NCBI GenBank assembly: GCA_030390025.1
Contig: CM059435.1
Span: forward strand, 89,652,001 to 89,716,000
Origin: Squalus acanthias
Taxonomy: Eukaryota
Direction of reading: 5' to 3'
DNA length: 64,000 nucleotides
Made by a program: the position numbers and the translations under genes. Shown here piece after piece: positions 633 through 57,466 of the stretch (its first letter is position 1; every line of letters starts with the position of its first letter). The notes beneath the pieces were generated by a model that saw only the letters and a program-made list of their open reading frames with translations, ran no database searches and was not told where the DNA came from.

Positions 633-940
633 ATTGTCTTTTAATTTGTCAAAAGCAAGACTAGGCAGTGTTGTTTTTTTATTGACCATTGCCAAGATCT
701 TGAAATATAATATAAGCAAATCACTAACCAAACAAATTCCACTATTCACACTTTGTTTAGCCCAAATATGACATCCCATTCTGATCAACAGCTGGATGAA
801 CCGGTTATTAATTCTCCTTCTTCTAACTACTGCCAGTAGGAAAGTCCTGCTTGCGGCCCTTTAACACAACAACACCTTTCCTTCTGTTCTCAGTAGTACA
901 GGAACCAATGTACCGCGTGGATTTGATAATCTCAGTCGGT

Positions 941-3409
941 ACTATATGCATATAGATTGGGCTACTCAAACTGGAAGCAATACGGTGGAGGAGGATTTCC
1001 TGGAGTGTTTAAGGGATGGTTTCCTAAACCAATATGTTGAGGAACCAACTCGAGGGGAGGCCATCCTGGACTGGGTGTTGTGTAATGAGGAGGGACTAAT
1101 CAGCAATCTTGTGGTACGAGGCCCCCTGGGGAAGAGTGACCATAGTATGGTGGAGTTCTACATTAGGATGGAGAAGGAAACAGTTAAGTCAGAGACCATG
1201 GTCCAGAACTTAAATAAGGGCAACTTTGAGGGTATGAGGCGTGAATTGGCGAGGTTAAATTGGCAAGCGATATTTAAGGGGCTATCAGTGGAAGGGCAAT
1301 GGCAGACATTTAGAGATCGCATGGATGAACTACAACAATTGTACATCCCGGTCTGGCATAAAAATAAAAAAGGGAAGGTGGCTCAACCATGGCTAACAAG
1401 GGAAATCAGGGATAGTATTAAAACCAAGGAAGTTGCATACAAATTGGCCAGAAGTAGCAGCAAACCCGGGGACTGGGAGAACTTCAAAACTCAGCAGAGG
1501 AGGACGAAGGGTTTGATTAGGGCAGGGAAAATAAAATATGAAAGGAAGCTTGCAGAGAACATTAAAATGGACTGCAAAAGCTTCTATAAATATGTAAAAA
1601 GAAAGAGGTTAGTAAAAACAAACGTAGGTCCCCTGCAGTCGGAAACAGGGGAAGTCGTAATGGGGAACAAGGAAATGGCAGATCAATTGAACAAGTACTT
1701 TGGTTCGGTGTTTACTGTGGAGGACACACACAACCTGCCGGAAATAAAAGGGGTCAGAGGATCTGGGAAGAGGGAGGAGCTGAGGGAAATCCTTATTAGT
1801 CGGGAAAAGGTATTGGGGAAATTGATGGGACTGAAGGCTGAAAAATCCCCGGGGCCTGATGGTCTGCATCCCAGAGTACTTAAGGAGGTGGCCTTGGAAG
1901 TAGTGGATGCATTGACGATCATTTTCCAACATTCCTTAGACTCTGGATCAGTTCCGATGGAGTGGAGGGTGGCCAATGTAACCCCTCTTTTTAAAAAAGG
2001 AGGGAGGGAGAAAGCAGGGAATTATAGCCTGACATCGGTCGTGGGTAAAATGATGGAAGCAATTATTAAAGATGTCATAACAGACCATTTGGAAAGTGGC
2101 GACATGATAGGTCCAAGTCAGCAAGGATTTGTGAAAGGGAAATCATGCTTGACAAATCTTCTGGAATTTTTTGAGGATGTTTCCAATAGGGTGGACAGGG
2201 GGGAACCAGTAGATGTGGTGTATTTGGACTTTCAGAAGGCCTTCGACAAGGTCCCACACAAGAGATTGGTGAGCAAAGTTAAAGCACATGGGATTGGGGG
2301 TAATGTGTTGACGTGGATTGAGAACTGGTTGGCACACAGGAAACAAAGAGTAGGAGTAAATGGGTACTTTTCAGAATGGCAGGCAGTGACCAGCGGGGTA
2401 CCGCAGGGTTCGGTGCTGGGACCCCAGCTGTTTACATTATATATTAATGATTTGGACGAAGGGATTAAATGTAATATCTCCAAATTTGCGGATGACACTA
2501 AATTGGGAGGCAGTGTGAACAATGAGGAGGATGCTAGGAGGCTACAGAGTGACTTGGACAGGTTGGGTGAATGGGCAAATGTATGGCAGATGAAGTACAA
2601 TGTGGATAAATGTGAGGTTATCCACTTTGGTGGTAAAAATAGAGAGGCGGACTATTACCTGAATGGTGGCAGATTAGGGAAAGGGGACGTGCAACGAGAC
2701 CTGGGCGTCATGGTACATCAGTCACTGAAGGTGGGAATGCAAGTGCAGCAGGCAGTCAAGAAAGCAAACGGAATGATGGCCTTCATAGCAAGGGGATTTG
2801 AGTACAGGAGTAGGGAGGTGATGCTACAGTTGTACAGGGCCTTGGTGAGGCCACACCTGGAGTATTGTGCGCAGTTTTGGTCTCCTAACTTAAGGAAGGA
2901 CATTCTTGCTATTGAGGGAGTGCAGCGAAGGTTCACTAGATTGATTCCTGGGATGGCCGGACTGACATATCAAGAAAGATTGGGTCAACTGAACTTGTAT
3001 CCTCTGGAGTTCAGAAGAATGAGGGGGGATCTTATAGAGACATTTAAAATCCTGACTGGTTTAGACAAATTAGATGCGGGCAGAATGTTCCCAATGGTAG
3101 GGAAAACTAGAACCAGGGGTCACAGTCTAAGGATTAAGGGGAAGCCATTTAGGACTGAGCTGAGGAGGAACTTCTTCACCCAGAGAGTGGTGAATCTATG
3201 GAATTCTCTTCCACAGAAGGTTGTTGAGGCCAGTTCGCTAAATATATTCAAAAGGGAGTTAGATATAACACTCACAACTAAGGGGATCAAGGGGTATGGC
3301 GAGAAAGCAGGAATGGGGTATTGAGGTAGCATGTTCAGCCATGAACGCATTGAATGGCGGTGCAGGCTCGAAGGACCGAATGGTCTACTCCTGTACCTAT
3401 TTTCTATGT
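941..3409 (+). mobile_element. CR1-clade LINE, 5'-truncated, with an uninterrupted 792-aa ORF2 fragment (end of APE endonuclease plus RT)
   Basis: ORF 946..3324 contains [38 protein letters not shown] and FADD; CR1 3' UTR ends in TTCTATGT. Confidence 0.93.
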
Positions 3410-3898: not shown

Positions 3899-4769
3899 CT
3901 AAGAAAAAAAAGCAAGGATCAGTGAAATTACAAAATGTAGTTAGCAGTATGCTTTAAATTAGCAATCTTTAAAAGAGAGACAGTGACAGGCCTACAGTTT
4001 CTAAGGTTTTTGTTGACTTCTGGATACTGTTGAATGGATAAGGAACAAATCTGAGTTTTCAAGAGTTGTCATTGTTTACAGAGAAAATATTTTTTGTTCA
4101 AAATGCTTCCCCATTTTATATTTTTATAAATAAATATATATATTCCTTTAAAAAACATCAGTTTCCTAAGCTGAAGTGAGGTATGTTAGGTTTGCATCTT
4201 TAATGATGTGAAAAGTAAGTCTGGAGGAGTACTTTTTATTCAAAGTTTATCCTGACTAAAGATACACTGTACATACAAAAGCTTTGTTTAACTTTTCTTA
4301 AAAATTTAATTTTTTCTGCTGCAGGGAGGTATGCAAGGTCAGGTCTTCGTTTCTGCTCAGGCACTCCATGACATCACAAACAGAAATGAGTTCTCATGTG
4401 CCCTGGATTGATTCCATTGCAAACAGTAGAGGCCATGGCATTGGACTAGCCCGAGAGCTGATCGAGAGTTTTATGACACCAAGAAAAGCATTCTGTCATC
4501 TACATACTCTTCATTACATGGCAAGATTTGTATTGCTGCTCCATTTACTTTACAACACTGCAGCAAATTGTGTGGCAATACAGCATAGTAAAAAGAGAGC
4601 ATTTTTGGTAATTATCAATTCAAAAATGTGTCCTGTGGATTTTGGTGCATTTTAAAAAAATATATAGAAAAATACTAACCCTAACGCGCAAAATGAGAGC
4701 ACGTTGAACTAATCTTACTCTCGTGTGAAAATATCATTGACAGTATAATATCAAATACAAAAAGCTCAC

Positions 4770-4910
4770 CACGCCCCACCATAAGGCATCAGCATAACTT
4801 CCAAAGCCAGTCTTCCCTCTCTCATCAACTGCATCTTTCTCAGCCAGATACACGAAATAGGAAGAAAAGATCAGACCCAGAAAACCAATGTATAGTGTTG
4901 TTATGAGTTC
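4770..4910 (-). CDS. KCNQ1: KCNQ1 coding exon (exon 6 equivalent; S5, turret, pore helix)
   Basis: ttttgcag|[47 protein letters not shown]|gtgag; 141 bp; lies inside ORF 4734..4997. Confidence 0.97.
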
Positions 4911-5948
4911 CTGCAAAACAAAACATTTCATCATCAATAAGGCATCACCTGATCTCAGGTAATAGGCTACTGTATACTTTTGCAGCTTGTAAACCACATC
5001 TTACAGGTGGATGAGACTTACACAGCTGCTGCACAAAGAACAAGATTCTGTATTTCTGTGCATTACTCCCTTGCAGGGAATATTTGCTGACAAATCGATC
5101 GGAGTGCCCATCATCGTTCAGCAGCAGTTCTACCTTCTGATTGCAATAACTCAGAAACGACGTGTCAGTCAAAGATTTACTAAAATCCTCCCAAACAAAG
5201 ACAAGCACTCGTTAATCTGGGTCCAAATAGAGAAATGAATAAATGGATGCCAGTACAAAAGATCTATGCTACCAACGGTCGTTTCACCTCTGACACTTAG
5301 TTAAAACTAGCTTTCCCACTCTGATGGATCTAAAATGTGGGGTCGATTGTAACCCTAGCCACCTGGCACAGACTTGAAATTTCTAATGATCACAATGACT
5401 TATAAAATATTTGGTTGATGATTCTAAAATTTTAAGAGTTGACTTTCAAATCGGAAAAGCCTCCTTCTCCCTGAAATTAGGCACAAACTGTTAGATCCAG
5501 CATGGTCATAAGTAATATATTTTTTTTTTTTTAAACGTTATTGTGACTGCAAAAGTCAACAAACTATCTCCAAATGGCAAAATACTGCGGATGCTGGAAA
5601 TCAGAAATATAAACAGAAAATGTTGGAAATACTCAGCAGGCCTGGCAGCATCTGTGGAAAGAGAAAGAGAGTTAACGGCCCCGATTTTAATTTTGCGACG
5701 TGCTTGGAGCGTGGGTGGTGGGGGGTGGTGAGCAGGTATGAGAAACCTGGAAGTAAGTGCAAGCATGTCTGCCAGTGGTTTTTTAACCCAGCCACCTCAT
5801 TATAATTTTACTTCCGGGTTTCCCATCCAATCAGCGGCAGCGGGTGTGATGTGGACCCGCCTGATGCAATCTCAACTCCAGTATTTAAAGGGACGCTCCA
5901 AACATGCAATTTGAAAAAGTCTGAAGTTGGGAACAATAGAGAAGAAAA

Positions 5949-7636
5949 TGTTAGAATTGAGTCCAGACGAGCAAAGGCTGTGCCTCGTTCCAGTGACTCC
6001 TCCCTGGATGTGCTGCTGGGGGCTGTGAGGAGTCAGAGAGAGATACTCTTCTCTACCAACGGGAGGAAGAAGCCTGCAGCGGAGACCACGAAGCAGTGGT
6101 TGGAGGTAGCTTAAGAAGTCAGCAGCAGGAGCGTGGTGACATGCTCCTGGATTCAGTGCAGAAAGCGCTTTAATGACCTAACCAGGTCATGAAAGGTGAG
6201 TACAGAGGCACATTAACCTACATCCTGCTGTGCGCAACACCCCACCCCCTCACTCTGCCTTGTCAAGCCTACTCTAGCACATCAGTCCTCACACCCACTT
6301 ACCTTGTAGGTCCACCCCTCCTCCTCTTTCTATGCACTTCCTCACATCCCCATCTATCCATCTACCACTCTCACTCACCCGCATTCCTTATGCAATGTCA
6401 TGCCTCTCCCTCATAGTCACCCTCACCAAATGCACTCCATCCATCGGCTGAACACATGCCATTACATTCACTCATACATCTCTTCTTTCCCTCCTTGCAG
6501 TAGAACAGATCACAGAGCACCAGGTAGAGGGAGAGAACCGGAAGGGGCCCTCCAAACATCTAGCAGCTGACAAGCGCAGAGGAGGCGGCACTGGAGATCA
6601 GTGGAATTTCGGCGTCCCTGGCCGCTGGAGACGGGACGACCTGGTCATCAGCTACCTGGTGACAATTAAATCAAAGCCACCCACATGTCATACCGCATTC
6701 AGTCAAGTTGACTTGATTTCAACAGCGAGTGAAATATGATCAGCTTCATAATGATAACTTGCAACATATTCTTACCTTGCCAGGACTAATTCATCTTTTA
6801 TCTCCCACAGGGCCTTCACGTGTGCAGCAACAGTCGGTGGAGATCGCGGACGACGATTCCTCAGAGGAGCTGAGTTCTTCTGAGGGTGCACCGTCACAGG
6901 GCTCATGCAGACCATGCACCAGCTCAGATAGTCACATTTCAGAGGCACCAGTAAGGCAGATAATTGGGTTTTCACCTGGTGACTCACATTTCACAAGTGA
7001 GCAAGAGCAGATGGTGGAGACAGGGAAAGCAGCGGAGAGGCCATATCAGAGGGACCAGCCCTCTCCAAGCTCTGCTCAGCTGGATACAGGATGTACCTCC
7101 AGGGCCATCGATGAAGAGGGGGATCATTAAGCAGCAGCAGACAATGTGCAGTGCACTGACAGGCCTTCAAAGTGGAATCACCACGACAGCAGAGAGATTG
7201 GAGGAATCCACCTCATGCATGGGGGGGGGGTAATGCCACCTGTCACTGAGATGATGTGTTCTTCCATGGATAAAGTGGCCAGCGCCATGAACCGTCATAC
7301 GCACCAATCAAATGAGTCCATGCACGCCGTGCAGACTCTAGATGCCAACATGTCTGTCACCTTAAATACATTGACAGGTACCTTAGCCTCGGCCTTACAG
7401 GGCCGCACTGATCTGCACCAACGTGTTCTCCAACACAGAAGTAGCAGTGAAGTGCGGCTGGGCCATGAGAGGGATTATGGTGAAAGGGGTCATGGAAGTG
7501 GGGACTCCATTCAAATCGCTTCGACTTCTCACCTACAGCCCACCTCTCAATCAGTAGCCCACATGCTGCCTCATCTCCGGATGGCCGAGTCTGCCCCTGC
7601 ACAGGTGCAGGTGGAGCAGTCTTTGGCGAGGCTCTC
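5949..7636 (+). pseudogene. Harbinger Myb/SANT-like DNA-binding protein gene remnant (3 exons)
   Basis: AVPRSSDSSLDVLLGAV...QWLEVA*EVSSRSVVTCSWIQCRKRFNDL; donor gtgagt at 6196; acceptors near 6500 and 6810; contains stops and frameshifts. Confidence 0.75.
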
Positions 7637-8115
7637 ACAGACTCATTCTGACAGGCATCATCGGCGGAAAAGTTGTCATAATTGCAGCCTTGGCAAACAA
7701 GCCATCAGTCACCTGTCTTATGCATTTCTGCGTGGCCGACTGGGAGATCCTGCATATGCATGCAGCAGAGCCCTGGAAGGATCCGGAGGCAAAAAAGTTG
7801 AGGGTGGTGGTGACTTTGACAGCCAGAGGTAACACGTGGCCACCAGGTCGTCTTCTAGCCACCACCTGACACGACAACCTGAGCCTCCTGAGACACAGGT
7901 GTTCAGACATGTCAAGGAAACTGATCCTCTGCCAGTAGACCCTGATTTGTGGGTGGTGCCTCCTGCGAGCTGCACCTCTCTGCTGATCCCCTCTCTGATG
8001 GTCCTCTCTCAGTTGTGCAGCTACAGGTCTGTGAGCAGCAGGCTGCTGCGGGTGCTGTTGCTGGTCACCTTGGCCCTCATGAGGTCCAATCTAAGGCAGC
8101 ATAAGCAGCACCCAT
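7637..8115 (-). pseudogene. Harbinger (HARBI1-like) transposase N-terminal remnant
   Basis: ORF 7635..7910 reads [20 protein letters not shown]...[17 protein letters not shown]; the DDE region is deleted. Confidence 0.8.
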
Positions 8116-8906
8116 CCTGATATGATAGACCAGACCTCTGAAGTGTAAAAAGTAACCTCTAAATTGTACAACGTAACATCTCAGCAAAAGTACGATGAAC
8201 AAACCCTTTCCCACTAGCAGGTAAGAAAGCAGCTCGGAGTATTTATTGGCATCTTTGCCAGAGATTGCTTCAGCCCCCTCAATTGCCACTGTGTACTCAC
8301 CCTTAGTTTCACTGGCGAGTGTCAGGAAGCCTGGGAAACCCATGGACCCGATGTTAAAGTGAAAACAGTGGCCATGATTTCCCCTACCTTGGCAGGTCCA
8401 GTGCGTCCAGGGTCGGTGGCGGGTTCAGACCTCGCTGCTGTCTCCAGCCCGCTGTCCAAAGTGATTTTACATTGATTGGACTTGTTAAGCCCGCCCAGCG
8501 TGTTTGCCGGCCAATTGAAGGAAGTGGGTCTGATGACGCGTCATCAGCCAGTTTCCTTAAAGAGACTAAGAGGGTTCACTACCCGGTCAAAAAAACATTT
8601 TCCCACCCGACCCATCACCAAACTCGCCCGCTGACCCCCCAAAAAATTCCCCTCAGTGTGTCAATATCGCTCTAATTGAGCGATTGGCATATGGAAACTG
8701 TCAATACGCATCTCCCAAGGAGGTTGCACGCAGGCAGCCTAACACATTGAAGACAAATGCTGGCTTCCCGATGTGCTGTCAATTTCGCCGGTTTTAACCC
8801 CCCACCTGCACCCAAACCCAAACTCACGTGTTCTTCCACATTAAAATTCAGCCCAACGTTTCAGGCAGGTGACCTTTTGTCAGCCCTGGAAAATGTTACA
8901 GATGTA

Positions 8907-11067
8907 GAATCATAGGGGGGGAAATTTGGTTGGTTAGCGCCTCCGGGGGGCGCCAACAACTTAGCGCTCAAGCGCAGCGATTTTAGCGCTGCTCGTGAAA
9001 TTGACCTGTCATTTTGCGCTGGCACTAAACACTACTGCCATGATCTCCTGCGCCCACAGATTGTGATGTCATGCAAGTGTGCAACGCCCCGGTAGCACCC
9101 CGGACCGGAAATTGAGTTGCGCCCCCGCCTTAGCGCCTGCCGCTAGGAACAACAGGTAGAGGAGAATGTTTTCAAGTCAGGAAGGGGCTGGGGGAGTGCT
9201 ATTTAAAGGCGTGCGCTTCCTGCTTTTTCTTGTCGGCAAAATTTTTGTTACACGCAGGTTGAGAGGGAGAGAGACATCTAGAGATTTAACGCTGTCCTAA
9301 GGAGTTTTGGTCCTTAGCACCACTTTTGAGGTTCCTAAGCGCCGAGCTCTTTCCCTGGGCCTATCCATTAGTGCTTCCAACACAATTGCTTTAGAGGTCT
9401 CTCCAGGCCGAGATTCAAGGCTGCAATGAGCAGGGTGTGGCTGGCCAGCAAGATGGCCCCTCCCCTTTAAGAACTGGACAGCGCCAGTCTGTCTGGCTTC
9501 CATGGTAACGGACATCGCCTGAGCTTCGATAGCGTTCTGAGGTAGCGCCTCGCTCCCCAACATTAGTGCCTTAAGAGAGGTGTGTAGCGCTTGATTTAGC
9601 GCTCAAATCACCTCCAGGGGCGATAGAGGCGAATTCTGCAGTCGGAGGCGATAATTAGCGCTGGGCGATACCCAATTTTTCCCCCATAGAATAGTACTGC
9701 ACAGAGGGAGGCCATTTGGCCCATCGAATCTGCACCGGCTCTTTCGAAGAGCAATCCAGTTAGTTCCACTCCCCCGCACTTTCCCCATATCCCTGCAATT
9801 TTTTCCTCCTCCAAGTATTTATCCAATTCCCTTTTGAAGGCTACTATTGAATCAGTATCCACCATCCTATCAGGCAGTGCATTCCAAATCCTAACCACTC
9901 ATTGCGTAAAAATGTTTTCCCTCATGTCGCCTCTGGTTCTTTTGCCAATCACCTGAAATTTGTGCCCTCTGGTTATCGACCCTTCAGCCATTGGAAACAG
10001 TTTCTCTTTATTTACTCTATCTAAACCCTTTATGATTTCAAACAGCTCTATCAAATCTCCTCTTAGCTTTCTCTGCTCTAAGGAGAACAACCCCAGCTTC
10101 TCTAGTCTATCCACGTAACTGTATTCCCTCATCCATGGAATCATTCTAGTAAATTTTTTCTGTACCCTTTCCAAAGCCTTCACGTCCTTCCTAAAGTGTG
10201 GTGCCCAGAATTGGACACAATACTCCAGCTGGGGCCGAACTAGTGTTTTATATAGGTTTAGCATAACTTCCTGGCTTTTGTACTCTATGCCTCTAATAAT
10301 AAAGCCTAGGATCCCATATGCTTTATTAACTACTTTGTTAACCTGTCCTGCCACCTTAAAGAATTGTGCACAAGCTCCCCCAGGTCTCTCTGTTCTTGCA
10401 CCAGCTTTAAAATTGTACCATTTAGTGTGTACCGTCTCTCCTCATTCTTCCTACCAAAATATATCACCTCACACTTTTCTACATTGAATTTCATCTGCCA
10501 CGTGTCGTCCATTCCACCAGCCTGTCTATGTCTTCTTGAAGTCTATCACCATCTTCCTCACTGTTTACAACACTTCCAAGTTTCATGTCATCTGCAAATT
10601 TCGAAATTGTGCCCTGTTCCCCCCAAGTCCAAGTCATTAATGTATATCAAAAACAGCAGTGGTCCTAGTACTGAACCTTGAGGACCTATACGTCCCTCCA
10701 GTCCGAAAAATAGCCATTCACGACAACTCTCTATTTTCTATCCCTTAGCCAATTTTGTATCCATGCTTCTACTACCCCTTTTATCCCACGGGCTTCAATT
10801 TTGCTAACAAATCTAGTATGTGGTACTTTATCAAATGCCTTTTGAAAGTCCATACAGGCAACATCAATTGCACTGCCCTCATCTACCATCTCTGTTACCT
10901 CATCAAAAAACTCATCAAGTTAATCAAACACGATTTGCCCTTAACAACTCTGTGCTGGTTCGCTTTTATTAATCCATGCTTGTCCAAGTGGCTGTTAATT
11001 TTCTCCTGGATTATTGTTTCTAAAAGCTTCCCCACTACAGACGTTAAACTGACTGGCCTGTAATTGA
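8907..11067 (-). mobile_element. CR1 LINE fragment inserted in the PLE and itself interrupted by a MITE
   Basis: ORFs 9899..10354 (LVRPQLEYCVQFW), 10330..10512 and 9608..9898; TAGAATCATAGAA tail is split at 8914/9686. Confidence 0.88.
8915..9685. mobile_element. GC-rich Harbinger-type MITE (GCGC-motif family)
   Basis: TIRs GGGGGGGAAATTTGGT / ACCCAATTTTTCCCCC; TSD ATA; internal homology, in inverse orientation, to 20024-20916. Confidence 0.8.
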
Positions 11068-16036: not shown

Positions 16037-19000
16037 TTAGGAGGTGTGGACGAGACGGTGCGGCGGTCTGATGGGCCGGCCGGAGCGGCTCTTGTAGGAC
16101 GCCGGTGGACGTGCAGCAGCCGGGTGAACCGGCTTGAGGGCAGGTCGGCCGCGTGGAGGTGGACGAGCTACAGGGACCTGCTCACCGGGCTCCGAGTGTG
16201 CTGGCTTGAGTCGGTCAACCGACACTTTTTCGGTCCTGTCGCCCACTTGCAGGGTGAAAAATTTGTCCCCAGCCTGTAGCACCTTGTAGGGCCCGTCGTA
16301 CGGGGGTTGAAGGGGTCCGCGGTGGGCGTCGTGCCGGACGAAAACAAACCGTGCCTGGTACAGGCTTAGTGGGACGTGTGAGGTGGATTCGCCGTGTCGG
16401 GCAATGGGCACCGGGGCGAACTGCAGCGCCGGTGAAGCGAAGTCGTGGCGCTGCTGGTCGGCTGACCAGGGTGTCGTGGCGGTGGACAGGAACTCGCCAG
16501 GTACGCGCAGCAACCGACCGTACACGAGCTCTGCTGCCGATGCGTGGAGGTCTTCTTTAACTGCGGTGCGCAGGCCGAGGAGGACCCACGGAAGTCAGTC
16601 GGTCCAGGCGCCGTCTTGGAGGCTGGCTCGAAGAGATGCCTTCAAGGATCTGTGGAACCGCTCACACAGTCCGTTGGCTTGGGGGTGGTACGCTGTGGTG
16701 TGATGAATGGTCACCCCGAGATTGCGTGCGACGGCGGTCCAGAGTTCAGAGGTAAATTGCGGACCTCTGTTCGACGTCATGTCGGAGGGGACGCCGAACC
16801 GTGCGACCCAGGTGCTGATGAAGGCTCTGGCGATGTCGGCGGTGGCGGTAGAGGTCAGTGGAATTGCCTCAGGCCAGCGTGTGGTGCGGTCAACGATGGT
16901 CAGCAAGTGCGTGTGGCCTTGCGACGGCGGCAGGGGCCCGACGATGTCCACGTGGATGTGGTCGAATCTACGCGAGGGGACGGTAAACTCCTCGAGGGGT
17001 GCTTTCGTGTGTTGCTGTACCTTGGCCCGTTGGCAGGCTAGGCAGGAGTTGGCCCAAGTACGCACATCCTTGCGAAGGCCGCGCCAGACAAAGCGGTTGG
17101 CTGCCAATTTGATGGATGCGCGGGCGCCGGGGTGGGAGAGGTTGTGGAGAATGTCGAATACCCGGCGGCGCCAGGACGACGGGCCGAGGTTGACATAGGG
17201 ATATGTCGCACTTGACCATGACTGCGGTCGGGCCACAGGCGACGTCGGCCAGGCGTAGCCCTGGTAGGTTGGTGGGTGCGGAGAGCAGATCAGGGTCGGT
17301 GATCTGGTCTGCTGCGAGTTGAGCGTAGTCGACTGCTAGGTGTGCGGCGTGGATGGCGGGGCGGGAGAGGCAGTCGGCTACCACATTGTCTCGGCCGGAG
17401 ACGTGTTGGATGTCCGTGGTGAACTCGGACACAGCCGCGAGCTGGCGCTGCTGCCTGGCGGACCAGGGGTCGGTTGTCTTTGCCATTGCGAATGTCAGGG
17501 GCTTGTGGTCGACAAACGCAGTGAAGGGGTGGCCCTCAAGCAAAAACCGGAAATGGCGGACCGCCAGGAACAGCGCGAGGAGCTCGCGGTCGAAGGTGCT
17601 GTACTTGACCTCCGGGGGGGCGTAGTTGGCGGCTGAAGAAGGCAAGTGGTTGCCAGGCGCAGTCGACCCACTGCTCATACACGGCGCCGACCGCGTGGTC
17701 GGAGGCGTCTGTGCTGAGCGCTACCCTGGCATTGGGCCATGGGTGCGCGAGCAGGGTGGCGTTGGTGAGCGCGGTCTTGGTGGAATCGAAGGCGGCGGAT
17801 GCGTCTGCCGTCCATTCGACCGCCATCTTGCCGCTCCTGCCCCGGAGGGCTTCATACAGGGGCCTCATGAGGGACGCCGCTTTGGGGATGAAGCGGTTAT
17901 AGAAATTCACCATCCCGAGGAACTCCTGGAGGCCTTTGAGGGTGGTGGGCCAGGGAAATTGTTGGACGGCCTGCACCTTGGTGGGCAGGGGAATGGCCCC
18001 AGCATGGGTGATGTGGTGGCCGAGGAAGTCGATCTTGTCCAGGCCGAACTGGCATTTGGCTGGGCTGAGGATGAGCCCGTGGTCGCTGAGGCGCCCGAAC
18101 AGGATGCGAAGGTGTTCGAGGTGTTCCTGCTTGGAGGAACTGGCTACCAGGATGTCGTTCAGGTAGACGAACAGGAACTTCAGGTCCTGAAGGACTGAGT
18201 CCATGAGCCGTTGGAATGCCTGGCCCGCGTTTTTGAGGCCGAAGGGCATCCGCAGAAACTCGAACAGGCCGAAGGGGCTGATTACGGCCGTCTTGGGGAC
18301 GTCTGCGGGGTGGACGGGGACTTAGTGGTAGCCGGGCACCAGGTCGACCTTGGAAAAGACTGAGCGGCCGGCCAGTCTAGCCGAGAAGTCCTGAATGTGC
18401 GGCACGGGGTACCGATCAGGGGTGGTGGCGTCATTGAGGCGGCGATAATCCCCGCAGGGGCGCCAACCTCCGCCTGGTTTGGGGGCGATGTGGAGTGGGG
18501 AGGCCCAGGGACTGTTGGAGCGGCGGATGATGCCGAGCTGTTCCATGGTGGCAAACTCGGTCCGCGCAATCTCCAGTTTGGCCGGGTCCAGCCTGCGGGC
18601 GTGGGCGTACACTGGGGGGCCTGTGGTGGGGATGAAGTGTTCCACCCAGTGTTTGGCGGCCTCCGCAGAGAAGGTCGGATTGGTAAGGGCTGGGAATTCG
18701 GCCAGGAGTGCCGAGTAGTCATCCGTGGCCCGGGCGTGGCACTGTGACGCCATGTCGGCGGGTTGACGGGGGGCCATGGTGCCCAGGATGGGGGACATGG
18801 TGTTCATGTCCACGAGGCGGTGACGAGGGATGTCTACCAGTAGGCCGTGGGCGCACAGGAAATCTGCGCCGATGAGGGGGGAGAGCACCTTGGCAGTGAT
18901 GAACTCCCATCGGTAGCGGTGACCAGCGAGGTCGAGGGTGACTGTCCGGGTGCCATACGTCCGGATTTCCGAGCCGTTAGCAGCAGCCAGCGCCGGTCCT

Positions 19001-19827
19001 CGTTCGCCCTTTTGGATGTCGAGGGAGGAGGCCGGGATGATGCTGTGCTGAGCCCCAGTGTCGCACAGGAACCGGCGGCCGGTTTTGTCATCCGTGATGT
19101 ACAGCAGGGAGCCCGCGTGGCCCACGGCCATCGCGGGGGCTGGAACGGGGGCGGACTTGAAAGAGCAGGGAGGTGTGCACCGTTGTGCCCTGGCGCCAAA
19201 CCGTGAGTGGTAGTAACAGTGGCCCGGGTTAGTGGGGCGTGACGGCCCTGTGGGCCTGGTGACAGGCCCTTGTGGCCGCGTGCTGGATGGTGAGGGGCGC
19301 GCCCAGGCATTGGCTGCCAGGTCCGGAGTGACGTCGCGGCTGGAGTGAGCGGACAGCAGCTTGTCGGCCTCATCGGCCAGGGCTTCCAGGTTCGTGGGGC
19401 CGGACGCCACGATCGCTGGGCGGATGCTGAGAGGGAGCTGGCGGATGAACAGCGTGCGGAAGAGGGATCTGGGTGGGCTCTCGTCGGTGAGGGAGAGCAT
19501 GTGGGAGAGGAGGTCTGACGGTGAGGCATCACCGAGGCCTGGAAGGTTGAGGAGGTGGCAGTTTCGCTGATATGCCGAGGCCGTAAATTTTTTAAGGAGC
19601 GCTGTCCTGAGATGCGTGTACTTGCCTTCCTCTGGTGGGTTCTGCAGCGTTGTCCAAACCTTGGAAACTGCGGCGCTACCGAGTGATGTGATGAGATAGT
19701 CGTACTTCGTCCCATCTGTGGTGATATTTCGCAGCCGGAAGCGAGATTCAGCTTGGAGAAACCAGGCTTCGGGCTGGTTTTCCCAAAGCTCCGGCAGTTT
19801 CATGGAAACTGCGTTCGTGTCCGCCAT
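16037..19827 (-). pseudogene. Gypsy gag-pol polyprotein (Gag CHCC, protease DTGA, RT, RNase H, integrase with GPY/F)
   Basis: ORFs 18322..19827, 17536..18249, 16968..17678, 16595..17236 and 16037..16525; stop in RT at 18322-18324; YLND replaces YLDD; several frameshifts. Confidence 0.92.
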
Positions 19828-19852
19828 TGCAGTGCTCGGAATACGTTCTGAG

Positions 19853-19866
19853 CGTCGGTGTCACCA
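19853..19866 (-). promoter_or_regulatory. Primer-binding site complementary to the tRNA-Trp 3' end
   Basis: Minus strand reads TGGTGACACCGACG versus the tRNA-Trp PBS TGGTGACCCCGACG (1 mismatch), 1 nt after the LTR. Confidence 0.85.
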
Positions 19867-25330: not shown

Positions 25331-25772
25331 TGAGAGGTCGCACAACACCAGGTTATAGTCCAACAGTTTTATTTGAAATCACAAGCTTTCGGAGCTATCG
25401 ATTGCCCCTTCCTCAGGTGAAGTAAATAGATACAGAATCGCCAAAGCATATATAGATAGAGAACAAAGCATGTGTACCTTACAATTGCAGACCACTAAAT
25501 TAAATCATCCTGACTATCTGCCGAGGTGTGATAAAGTTAATCAGGTCAGCCAGGAAGGTACCACATCAAAGACATAGCAAGATACAACTGAGACAATGAG
25601 GTGTAGTCGCTGGGGTTCTAACGTGTCAAAAGCTGCCGTCTGTATGTAAAACGAAAAGCTTTAAAATTTTTACTTTTTTACTGGGAAAATTTTTACTTTT
25701 TTTTTACTGGGAATCACATCTGTGAACAAGCCAACGACGACTCGAGTCCGGATCACGTCATGTATCGTGACA
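25331..25772 (-). mobile_element. Penelope-like family B terminal-repeat insertion (nearly non-coding)
   Basis: TSD TATATTCTAT at 25321-25330 and 25773-25782; begins at SRYM (ORF end) and its 3' end matches 56430-56515. Confidence 0.85.
25379..25420 (-). ncRNA. Minimal type-I hammerhead ribozyme (PLE family B)
   Basis: Reverse complement: TCAC-CTGAGGA-A-GGGGC-AATCGATA-GCTCC-GAAA-GC-TT-GTGA. Confidence 0.75.
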
Positions 25773-30939: not shown

Positions 30940-32693
30940 TGACAATTAAATGCATATTTTGGTTCTGTCTTCACAAAGGAGGACACAAATAACCTCCCAG
31001 AGATATTGGAGAACATACGGTCTGATGAAAGGGAGGAACTGAAAGAAATCAGTATTTGCAGGGAAATGGTGTTAGGGAAATTGACGGGATTGAAGGCCGA
31101 TAAATCCCCAGGGCCTGATAATCTACATCCTAGGGTACTTAAGGAAGTGGCCCTAGAAATAGTAGATGCATTGCTGATCATCTTCCAACATTCGATGGAA
31201 TCTGGAACTGTACCCATGGATTGGAGGGTAGCTAATGTTACCCCACTATTCAAAAAGGGTGGTAGAGAGAAAGCGGAGAATTACAGACCGGTAAGCCGGA
31301 CATCGGTATTAGGGAAAATGCTCGAGTCCATTATAAAGGATGTAATAGCTGAGCACTTGAAAAACAGTGACAGGATCGGACAAAGTCAACATGGATTTAC
31401 AAAAGGTAAATCGTGCTTGACTAATCTACTGGAATTTTTTTTGAGGATGTAACTGGGAAAATAGATAAGGGAGAACCAGTAGATGTGGTGTATTTGGACT
31501 TTCAAAAGGCTTTCGATAAGGTCCCGCATAAGAGATTAGCGTGTAAAGTTAAGGCACATGGGATTGGGGGCAAGGTATTGACTTGGATAGAGAACTGGTT
31601 GGCGGACAGAAAGCAGAGAGTAGGAATTAATGGGTCTTTTTCCGAGTGGCAAGCAGTGACTAGTGGGGTACCACAGGGATCGGTCCTGGGACCCCAGCTA
31701 TTCACAATATACATTAATGATCTAGATAAGGGAACTAAATGTAATATCTCCAAGTTTGCAGATGACACAAAGCTGGGTGGGAGTGTGTGCTGCGAGGAGG
31801 ATACCGAGAAACTCCAGGATGATTTGGACAGGTTGGGTGAGTGGGCAGAAGCGTGGCAGATGCAATATAACGTGGATAAGTGCGAGGTTATCCACTTTGG
31901 TGTCAAAAACAGAAAGGCAGACTATTATCTGAATGGCAATAGATTGGGAGAAGGGGAAGTGCAACGAGACCTGGGTGTCCTTGTGCACCAGTCGCTGAAA
32001 GTAAGCATGCAGGTGCAGCAGGCGGTGAAGAAGGCAAATGGTATGTTGGCCTTCATAGCGAAAGGGTTTGAGTATAGGAACAGGGATGTCCTGCTGCAGT
32101 TGTACAGGGCCTTGGTGAGACCACACCTTGAGTACTGTGTGCAGTTTTGGTCGCCTTATCTGAGGAAGGATGTTCTTGTCATGGAAGGAGTTCAGCGAAG
32201 ATTCACAAGGCTGATACCTGGGATGGCAGGAATGACATATGAGGAGAGATTGGGTCGATTGGGCTTATACTCACTGGAGTATAGAAGAATGAGAGGGGAT
32301 CTCATCGAAACATATAAAATTCTGTCAGGTCTGGACAAACTAGATGCAAGAAGAATGTTCCTGATGGTCGGAGAGTCCAGAACCAGGGGTCATCATCTAA
32401 GGATAAGGGGTAAGCCATTTAGGACAGAAATGAGGAAGAATTTCTTCACCCAGAGAGTGGTGAACCTGTGGAATTATCTACCACAGAAGGTAGTTGAGGC
32501 CAAGTCATTAAATATATTCAAGAATGAGTTAGATATATTTCTTAAAGCTAAAGGTATCAAGGGATATGGGGAGAAGGCAGGTACAGGGTACTGAGTTTGG
32601 ATGATCAGCCATGATCTCATCGAATGGCGGAGCAGGCTCGAGGGGCCGAATGGCCTACTCCTGCTCCTATCTTCTATGTTTCTATGTTTCTAT
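30940..32693 (+). mobile_element. CR1 LINE, 5'-truncated, one frameshift
   Basis: ORFs 31006..31452 and 31485..32594 (RT FADD); (TTCTATGT)n tail; same subfamily as 941-3409. Confidence 0.93.
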
Positions 32694-55700: not shown

Positions 55701-55895
55701 GACAACATATCCATTTTATGTGCTCTTGTGTATTGAAAAGATGGCCATTTCTGTATCAAACTAGATTTTTAACATGGATAATAAAGATAACAAGGAAACC
55801 AAATCAATAATCTATCAAAGATGAAAGTGCTACTTTTTGTCACAATGATCCTGAATGGCAGATGAGCTCAAAGGACTGTATTTTTACTCATGTTT

Positions 55896-56515
55896 ATGAA
55901 CGGACACCGCGCAACAATTGCCAGGCAGGAGTGTTCCCTCCCAGTCGGGGAACACTTCAGCAGTCAAGGACATTCAGCCTCCGATCTTCGGGTAAGCGTT
56001 CTCCAAGGCGGCCTTCGAGACACACGACAACGCAAAATCGTCGAGCAGAAACTGATAGCCAAGTTCCGCACCCATGAGGACGGCCTCAACCGGGATCTTG
56101 GGTTCATTTCACGCTACATGTAACCCCACCTGACGTAGAGTCATCCAGACTCGAATCGTCGTTGGCTTGTTCTCTCTACACAGATGCGGCCGGACCTGCT
56201 GTGATTTCCAGCAAAAATAGTTTTTTGTTTTCCATACAGACCCCAGCATCTGCCACATTGTCTTTGATGTAATGTTTTCCTGACTGACCTGTTTGGACAC
56301 CATCCACACCTTTGATTGCCGTGATTATCTCTCTGCCGAGGTGTGATAAAGGGCAGTTGGAAAGATTAACTGTAATCACTTGGCTGTGTTCTCTGACTAT
56401 ATATGCTGTGCCTATATGTATCTCTTCACTTCACCTGACGAAGGAGCAGCGCTCCGAAAGCTTGTGATTTCAAATAAACCTGTTGGACTATAACCTGGTG
56501 TTGTGCGACTTCTCA
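55896..56515 (+). mobile_element. Penelope-like family B 3' fragment
   Basis: ORF 55890..56123 is a GIY-YIG C-terminus (RMNGHR..VGEHF..EQKLIAKF..GLNRD); TSD CATGTTT at 55889-55895 and 56516-56522. Confidence 0.85.
56431..56467 (+). ncRNA. Minimal type-I hammerhead ribozyme (PLE family B)
   Basis: TCAC-CTGACGA-A-GGAGC-AGC-GCTCC-GAAA-GC-TT-GTGA; intact core and perfect stems I and II. Confidence 0.8.
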
Positions 56516-56827
56516 CATGTTTTTATTTACCACTAATAATACCATGTGCCATCAGACTACAGTAGAAATTTTCTACTACTTAGGTGAAAGATTCCAAAAG
56601 GAGGGAAAAAAATTACCTTTTGCATTGATACCATCGCAAAGCAATTCTCAAAATTTGTGCATGCAACTAAAACAGTAGGACCTGGATTCTCTCCCCGTTG
56701 GCAGGTTTGAAGTGGAGTGATCCCAATGGCTGCTAATGTGAAATTGCCACTAACCTGCTGCAATTTCCTTCCAGAATCCTTATTAACCATGGAGAGCAGT
56801 TTGGAGGCTAGAAAACTACCCTTCAAT

Positions 56828-57466
56828 GCACCACGGCATGGTACATCGGCGAGACCATGCAGACACTGAGACAACGTATGAACGGACACCGCGCAACAAT
56901 CACCAGGCAGGATTGTTCCTTCCCAGTCGGGGAACACTTCAGCAGTCAAGGACATTCAGCCTCGGATCTGCGGGTTAGCGTTTGCCAAGGCGGCCTTCGA
57001 GACACATGACAATGCAAAATCATCGAGCAGAAACTGATAGCCAAGTTCCGCACCCATGAGAACGGCCTCAACCGGGATCTCGGTTTCATGTCACGCTACA
57101 GAACGTGACTCGACATTGTTGTCTGGTTCACAGGTGTGATTTCCAGTTTTTAAAAAAAAGTTAAAAGCTTAACTGCAGACTGCAGCATTTGACACGTTGG
57201 ACCCCCTGTGACCCACCTCATTGTCTTAGCTGTACTCTGCTGTGTCTTTGATGTAATGCCTCCCTGACGGATTGTATCTCTGCAGACACATTGTTCTCTG
57301 TCTATATATACTTTGTAATCGATTTGTATTCCCTCACTGTACCTGACGAAGGAGCAGAGCGCCGAAAGCTCGTAATTTCAAATAAAACTGTTGGACTATA
57401 ACCTGGTGTTGCGCGACTTCTCATTTTTGTCCACCCCAGTCCAACACCGGCATCTCCGCATCATGA
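56828..57466 (+). mobile_element. Penelope-like family B 3' fragment (second subfamily)
   Basis: Encodes AWYIGETMQTLRQRMNGHRATI; TSD CTTCAAT at 56821-56827 and 57467-57473. Confidence 0.85.
57340..57374 (+). ncRNA. Minimal type-I hammerhead ribozyme (PLE family B)
   Basis: TAC-CTGACGA-A-GGAGC-AGA-GCGCC-GAAA-GC-TC-GTA; compensatory change in stem I; one mismatch in stem II. Confidence 0.72.

Follow-up and report, generated by a model that had tools for sequence, protein, structure and literature searches.

Minimal hammerhead ribozymes (min-HHRs) are known from the end repeats of metazoan Penelope-like elements (PLEs), among them the Neptune elements of fishes (Cervera and De la Pena 2014, PMC4209133). 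The motifs described below share with them the type I core, a bulge between positions 9 and 10.1, the G10.1-C11.1 pair, a palindromic 15.2-16.2 without loop 3 and a stem I of 4 bp, as well as a location in the pseudo-LTR (pLTR), a division into many subfamilies and the occurrence of most copies singly or on opposite strands. Stem II of the present family is 5 bp long, unlike that of the published min-HHRs, and copies number in the tens of thousands, as compared to 4,000-9,000 for coelacanth and Xenopus. Here 5' ends were mapped across many copies, whereas neither these nor the transcription start figure in the available parts of the 2014 account.

The Poseidon element PAc of the green anole (Frangieh et al. 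2024, PMC11167929) resembles the present family in having alternative 3' ends separated by a tail, a hammerhead near the ORF start and uncut RNA as the template. Protein-assisted cleavage and the use of uncut RNA were demonstrated for it in vitro, and its RNA-seq data gave no ends at the cut site. The ATG of PAc lies inside the hammerhead, whereas it is found 91 nt after the cut site here; the present ORF, unlike that of PAc, carries a Neptune-type cysteine linker, and the evidence given here is genomic while that for PAc is biochemical. The EN+ PLEs of the Neptune clade (Craig et al., bioRxiv 2021.04.23.441226) have in common with the present element an RT with a C-terminal GIY-YIG domain, a CX4CxxC linker, a CCHH motif, partial tandems, an inverted arm and a tail at one end. 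In Adineta Penelope (PMC3846280), a TATA box is located in the pLTR about 20 nt before TCACT, and the arrangement here is similar. In both of these accounts, as far as their available text goes, the promoter was deduced from motifs only and inversions were attributed to self-priming; here the start is marked by 5' ends and an extra G, and some of the inverted pairs have unlike arms.

Full-length LINE-1 insertions carry an extra 5' G derived from a copied cap (PMC11702581). The present family likewise shows such a G at 5' junctions of copies extending to the start of the RNA, but LINE-1 copies are full-length and poly(A)-primed, whereas the arms here are 90-135 nt long and primed inside the RNA near its 5' end. 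Non-LTR retrozymes (bioRxiv 10.64898/2026.07.22.740005), for which one cartilaginous fish has already been screened, are PLE-related and likewise have two hammerheads less than 1 kb apart. A literature search, beyond the reach of which lay most subscription papers, returned no report of such hammerheads in a shark by title. Hammerheads in PLE end repeats are already known; the family-wide evidence from 5' ends and the extra G is the more useful result of the present analysis.

The window, a stretch of 64,000 nt of Squalus acanthias DNA (GCA_030390025.1, contig CM059435.1, positions 89,652,001 to 89,716,000), holds three insertions of the family (Table 1). Copies 1 and 2 are independent insertions of different subfamilies and not a tandem unit, because each is flanked by a separate 7-bp target duplication (55889 and 56516 for copy 1, 56821 and 57467 for copy 2) and has near-identical relatives of its own, at least 40 for either copy. 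Copy 1 differs from four of its relatives by 1.6-2.6 % over 624 nt. The ORF pieces of the two copies are 93 % alike and their 3' UTRs are unlike; with copy 1 ending at the short 3' end and copy 2 carrying the tail, they represent the two end points of the family. Copy 3 is flanked by a 10-bp duplication (25321 and 25773) and sits inside a piece of a CR1-like LINE. A Pfam search of the ORF piece of copy 1 gave no match, and the GIY-YIG match of copy 2 was weak (E 0.023, below the cut-off). The spacer between copies 1 and 2 had no match among the fetched loci, and within it positions 56571-56704 are without cover by contigs of four related organisms. A reading of copies 1 and 2 as a non-LTR retrozyme composed of tandem non-coding units was rejected: they are two insertions with their own duplications and an unrelated spacer, and the 908 nt between their predicted cut sites form no repeated unit, unlike in those elements.

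Table 1 Features of the window (positions of the whole stretch)
Feature	Position	Strand	Remarks
Copy 3, third subfamily	25331..25772	-	3' UTR and pLTR; hammerhead at 25379-25420; short 3' end
Copy 1, 5'-truncated Penelope-like insertion	55895..56518	+	End of GIY-YIG ORF, 3' UTR, pLTR; the family's short 3' end
GIY-YIG endonuclease ORF, C-terminal piece, copy 1	55895..56123	+	From the ORF list; the peptide also ends the 891-aa ORF of locus L215
TATA-like box, copy 1	56398..56404	+	From the sequence; 30 nt before the putative start; candidate promoter element
Initiator-like TCACTTC, copy 1	56426..56432	+	A at 56428 is the putative capped start, 3 nt before stem I
Hammerhead motif 1	56431..56467	+	Predicted pairs all intact; predicted cut after 56463
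AATAAA	56473..56478	+	9 nt after the predicted cut site; opens the conserved 3' module
Spacer between copies 1 and 2	56519..56820	.	Outside the element
Copy 2, other subfamily	56825..57466	+	Different 3' UTR; tail of about 40 nt
TATA-like box (57303-57310) and initiator-like site (A at 57336), copy 2	57303..57342	+	From the sequence; position equivalent to 56428
Hammerhead motif 2	57339..57375	+	Stem I of 3 bp (U-A variant); predicted cut after 57371
Tail of copy 2	57425..57466	+	Separates the two alternative 3' ends of the family; in full-length elements the ATG at 57463-57465 opens the ORF of the following unit

As a locus, this one is unremarkable. The remainder of the window is rich in repeats and no host exon was recognised near copies 1 and 2. 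Long CR1-like LINE frames of 819 and 389 aa are present at 865-3321 and 31425-32591, both on the plus strand, and frames that by eye resemble an LTR retrotransposon gag-pol in pieces lie at 16040-19860 on the minus strand, with a G+C content of about 62 %.

The initial annotation had described two intact minimal hammerheads in Penelope-like 3' repeats, and re-reading of the sequence located their parts where it had placed them, with predicted cut sites 908 nt apart on the same strand; the motifs do lie in pLTRs of an RT/GIY-YIG element. In motif 1, stem I (56431-34/56464-67) is followed by the core (56435-41), a bulged A, stem II (56443-47/56451-55), GAAA, GC and UH. The core of motif 2 occupies 57343-49, and its stem I has three pairs rather than four, the outer pair being G-A. 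The variation of H17 between U (56463) and C (57371) was correctly noted, as were the G-U pair and the different loop II of the third copy (25379-25420, minus strand), in which the G-U pair is in stem II, loop II is 8 nt long and N7 is G. Stem III is indeed reduced to the palindrome AGCU in all three motifs. Of copies 1 and 2, only copy 1 is intact, since a T>G change at 57361 creates an A-G mismatch that breaks the middle pair of stem II in copy 2. Among the 30 loci fetched for the subfamily of copy 2, this G is present only in the window and in L032 (C16:56946789), a locus 1.5 % divergent from window copy 2 over 586 nt; either a small sub-lineage or a duplication would account for the shared base. 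A change resembling it was seen in L291.

The core CUGANGA / GAAA / UH is present in all three copies. A search of the window with a loose core pattern gave 10 matches, and the three motifs, which are copies of one repeat family, are not chance matches. The detection by covariance model that had been envisaged did not succeed: an Rfam search of the window found no hammerhead up to E=1, with two weak miRNA matches as its only output.

It had also been proposed that copies 1 and 2 could pair when present together on a plus-strand RNA, with excision of the intervening 908 nt. The two lie on the same strand and the promoter-like site of copy 1 could yield an RNA containing both, yet either stem I of a double hammerhead is made of strands from both partners (PMC4209133) and the C-G/U-A difference between the subfamilies therefore leaves this particular pair mismatched. 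The heterodimer has a C-A in the outer stem I and G-U and A-G in the inner stem I, in addition to the broken stem II of copy 2. A homodimer of copy 1 is predicted at -20.7 kcal/mol and a typical one of subfamily 2 at -14.9, whereas the heterodimer has -6.7; forcing the latter on a 953-nt RNA carries a predicted penalty of 24 kcal/mol. In the folding of that RNA the AGCU:AGCU helix reached a pairing probability of about 5 %, whereas the mismatched stem I helices and the broken stem II remained at 0.0005 or less. Folding energies are not decisive in this matter, as the anole hammerhead needed its protein (PMC11167929). Against excision also stand the independence of the two insertions, the AATAAA between them and the number of same-strand neighbours within 1 kb expected by chance, about 1,200 in the genome; the closest arms in 74 sampled 10-kb stretches (96 arms) were 1,424 nt apart. 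Excision between copies 1 and 2 is thus unlikely, and we regard the proposal as a whole as highly improbable. The partner of each hammerhead is likely to be the other pLTR of its own element, 3.1 kb away. As a pLTR is present at each end, an intact element has two matching hammerheads. In our judgement the two motifs probably represent the minimal hammerhead usual for a Neptune-type PLE, left here by two insertions, and would cut only with a matching copy and not with each other.

Exact matches to the 32-nt module downstream of the hammerhead number 94,762 in the 3.7-Gb genome. Their density is uneven, with one copy in 140 kb of evenly spaced stretches as compared to 100 in the first 3.1 Mb of contig C1. 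A full unit of 3.1 kb consists of a pLTR, an RT/GIY-YIG ORF of 891 aa, a 3' UTR and a second pLTR, and two same-strand pLTR modules about 3.1 kb apart were present in 11 of 20 fetched loci. In L215 the ATG lies 127 nt after the putative start, and the ORF matches RVT_1 (E 1e-8) and has a CX4CxxC linker between RT and EN; the C-terminal GIY-YIG domain with two Cys and two His was recognised by eye, the Pfam match being weak, as mentioned above. A CX2-5CxxC linker is part of the Neptune-clade definition and also occurs in Nematis (bioRxiv 2021.04.23.441226). Partial tandems, an inverted arm and a tail of 30-40 nt at one end are all found in the family, and in layout and motifs the element fits the published definition of a Neptune-type Penelope-like retrotransposon.

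Variation in the hammerhead was studied in arms picked by means of the module past the cut site (194 sampled, 192 analysed); the bulk came from the initial 3.7 Mb of contig C1 and two variant searches, and 30 loci fetched with a CR1 LINE query were included. The motif is spanned by 146 arms, 145 of which could be parsed; after misparsed rows had been dropped, 141 rows from 96 loci were kept. Conservation of the 32-nt module would be an unfair control, the copies having been chosen by it. Among the 141 rows, N7 takes all four bases and H17 only U or C, and 14 types of loop II each occur in two or more loci, while C3, G5, A6, G8, A9, A13, A14, A15.1, U16.1 and the GC palindrome are free of recurrent change. 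Nine of the 11 core bases thus show no recurrent change, the exceptions being U4C in one lineage, where it is fixed (5 loci), and G12A at a CpG. CpG decay affects G12, and the outer pair of stem I is often broken. The bulged A between 9 and 10.1 was present in 143 of the 145 parsed rows, G10.1-C11.1 was G-C in 140 and the palindromic 15.2-16.2 was GC in 143; a stable stem III is absent. Reads of four other organisms had the same positions unchanged at the 3 % level, and in one of them, organism C, U4C was seen at 16 % depth. In L111, L113 and L129, U4C is accompanied by a compensatory change of the stem II closing pair to U-A.

The stem I change from C-G to U-A, which had been put forward as compensatory, is a true difference between subfamilies: pair 1.3 is C-G in 113 rows, U-A in 27, U-G in 4 and C-A in 1 (n=145). 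In stem II, 6 rows have U-A as the closing pair, and G-U wobbles occur at two other pairs. In 20 haplotypes, 97 % of cells are paired and a two-sided change was found in two of nine pairs; two covarying pairs were also reached in 27 of 500 shuffles, and the rows are related to one another. A rough ORF-based tree (73 of 98 rows kept, some with junction DNA; bootstrap unsettled) suggests about two origins of the U-A pair. The covariation is consequently weak and amounts to about two independent compensatory events in stem I and one in stem II. As to the claim of a selected self-cleaving module, the pattern of variation across subfamilies fits selection on the source lineages, and the covariation is modest. 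The pattern gives no support for selection on the two window copies themselves, and these appear to be decaying descendants of lineages on which selection acted.

The 5' ends of the arms do not mark the cut site. Just 3 of 192 arms begin at most 2 nt away from it, whereas 187 extend across it, as do 77,858 exact matches genome-wide. Cut RNA is therefore not the usual template, because copies would then start at the cut site, and the cut site was rejected as the 5' boundary of copies. Instead, 36 of the 192 arms start at C3-9..-4, at a density of 6.0 per nt compared to 0.27 upstream. The mode, -7, is the A of the initiator-like TCACTTC; it follows the TATA-like box by 30 nt and precedes stem I by 3 nt, and the positions suggest that transcription starts at this A from a TATA/initiator promoter. 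The start site is run through by 110 of the 192 arms and by 8 of 11 full units. A pyrimidine precedes the start A in the element; genome-wide, a purine was found there in 4,434 of 37,520 matches. The corresponding purine-preceded matches amount to 578 at the cut site and 366 two nt downstream, and samples contained true truncations in 14 of 20 and 9 of 20 cases, respectively, which gives an estimate of about 405 ends at the cut site versus 165 two nt away. A GTGA match in the partner arm accounts for four of the 14 cut-site truncations. There is, then, a small excess of 5' ends at the cut site, due in part to microhomology and about tenfold below the count at the start site; ends at the cut site account for roughly 1 % of copies or less.

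Copies that begin at the start site tend to carry a G beyond it. The base preceding the start was G in 82 of the first 100 purine-preceded starts versus 43 of 100 at the cut site (hand counts; p=2e-8), a comparison in which the cut site served as the only control. Among 60 fetched junctions, inserted bases ended in G in 15 of 18 cases (p=0.004) and joins without a shared A ended in G in 18 of 19 (p=0.0008); 21 junctions share an A with the partner arm and 2 are unexplained. All seven arms starting at -4 are preceded by G, and partner microhomology can also favour G, as at that position. By analogy with LINE-1, the extra G is likely to be a copied cap, many copies having been made from capped, uncut RNA; the short copies, at any rate, come from uncut and likely capped RNA. 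No paper on an untemplated G in PLEs or on this 5' boundary was found by the literature search, with most subscription papers outside its range.

The peak of 5' ends might alternatively reflect stalling of the RT or microhomology joining at the hammerhead, with no transcription start involved. Short matches with the partner arm at many junctions are in keeping with this, but the peak comes only after the RT has passed the hammerhead structure, it falls on an initiator 30-33 nt from a TATA-like box, and the solo copies L311 and L354 have a single G outside their target duplications. We therefore think it improbable, and prefer a capped transcription start, which gives a prediction of the RNA start of the element at the level of the single base.

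Inverted pairs of arms offer a second view of the template. Exactly one arm carries the tail in 64 of 67 head-to-head pairs, a pattern already published for inverted PLE pairs (bioRxiv 2021.04.23.441226). The target duplications are mostly 11-14 bp around inverted pairs, and 7, 7 and 10 bp around the three solo copies of the window. In seven of 52 comparable pairs the arms differ in the length of loop II, and six of these seven have the one-tail pattern (L128, L133, L146, L248, L259 and L298 are one-tail head-to-head insertions with unlike loop-II types). Such pairs raise the possibility that the hammerhead dimer forms in trans, from two RNAs held on one dimeric RT-endonuclease complex, and not end to end on one RNA. 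The inverted pairs are single events, as their one tail shows, and in some of the unlike pairs both arms end near the start. In L365 (C1:43394124-43394165), both arms reach the putative start with an extra G and are joined as a perfect palindrome, which reads as two capped ends joined, and the anole protein is predicted to be a dimer (PMC11167929). However, 45 of the 52 pairs agree in loop length, compared to about 33 % for random arms, and discordant arms would also arise from unlike 5' and 3' pLTRs of the source or from gene conversion. We consider dimer formation in trans rather unlikely. At C1:80769884-80769927, two further arms each lie at the putative start and each have an extra G. In L343, the initial portion of the ORF and a G stand, in direct orientation, ahead of a short arm at the putative start, an arrangement that resembles a jump or a small circle.

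The mechanism that we tentatively put forward, in its full form somewhat less likely than not, treats the genome as a fossil record. A capped RNA would start 3 nt before stem I, so that both of its termini carry a complete hammerhead. Priming by the RT would take place 55 or 95 nt beyond the cut site, and in many cases uncut RNA would be copied up to the cap, giving the short arms; a dimeric enzyme could use two RNAs in one insertion. In a branch of the pathway, end-to-end dimer cleavage of some transcripts would produce a unit-length RNA that is ligated into a circle, for which the chances seem to us about equal either way. The circle would template long copies extending past the start site and so regenerate the pLTR with its promoter. 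Long copies need a circle, a template jump or read-through, and the circle is favoured, with a similarly balanced judgement, for part of the RNA. Dimer cleavage followed by ligation has been proposed for PLE hammerheads (PMC4209133), and dimer cleavage by Lunse, Weinberg and Breaker is summarised in PMC6765202. Hammerhead cleavage of these elements is a prediction from their sequence. Help by the protein would be likely, by analogy with the anole element, because the homodimer is not the best fold (that of copy 1 lies about 10 kcal/mol above its own best alternative) and the anole motif cut only with its protein. The spread of Naiad elements without hammerheads (bioRxiv 2021.04.23.441226) counts against this mechanism.

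A rival that we consider on balance unlikely is a hammerhead that never cuts usefully in vivo and is kept as a structural or promoter/5'-UTR element. Long copies would then arise by read-through or when the RT jumps, in the manner of an LTR element, between the capped 5' end of the template and the pLTR at the 3' end. The span of the cut site by nearly all arms and by the exact matches counted above agrees with this, catalytic mutants had no effect on insertion in vitro (PMC11167929), the motif overlaps the initiator, and a jump explains the full units that pass the start site as well as a circle does. Against it, the free N7, the H17 without recurrent G and the fixed core follow catalytic rules that a promoter would not need. 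The small excess of 5' ends at the cut site also speaks against it, as does a second repeat family of this genome that has retained the core with a different stem I and the palindrome ACGU.

The family-wide data bear on the role of the hammerhead in endonuclease-bearing PLEs and on the regeneration of the pseudo-LTR, both of which have been called open (bioRxiv 2021.04.23.441226; PMC2377424). The C-G and U-A stem I subfamilies provide a natural test of specificity, in which matched dimers should cleave and mixed ones should not. The second family, which has a minimal hammerhead with the same core and other stems I and II, has 18 distinct matches, and its loci include L077:-, L111, L147, L219 and L236.
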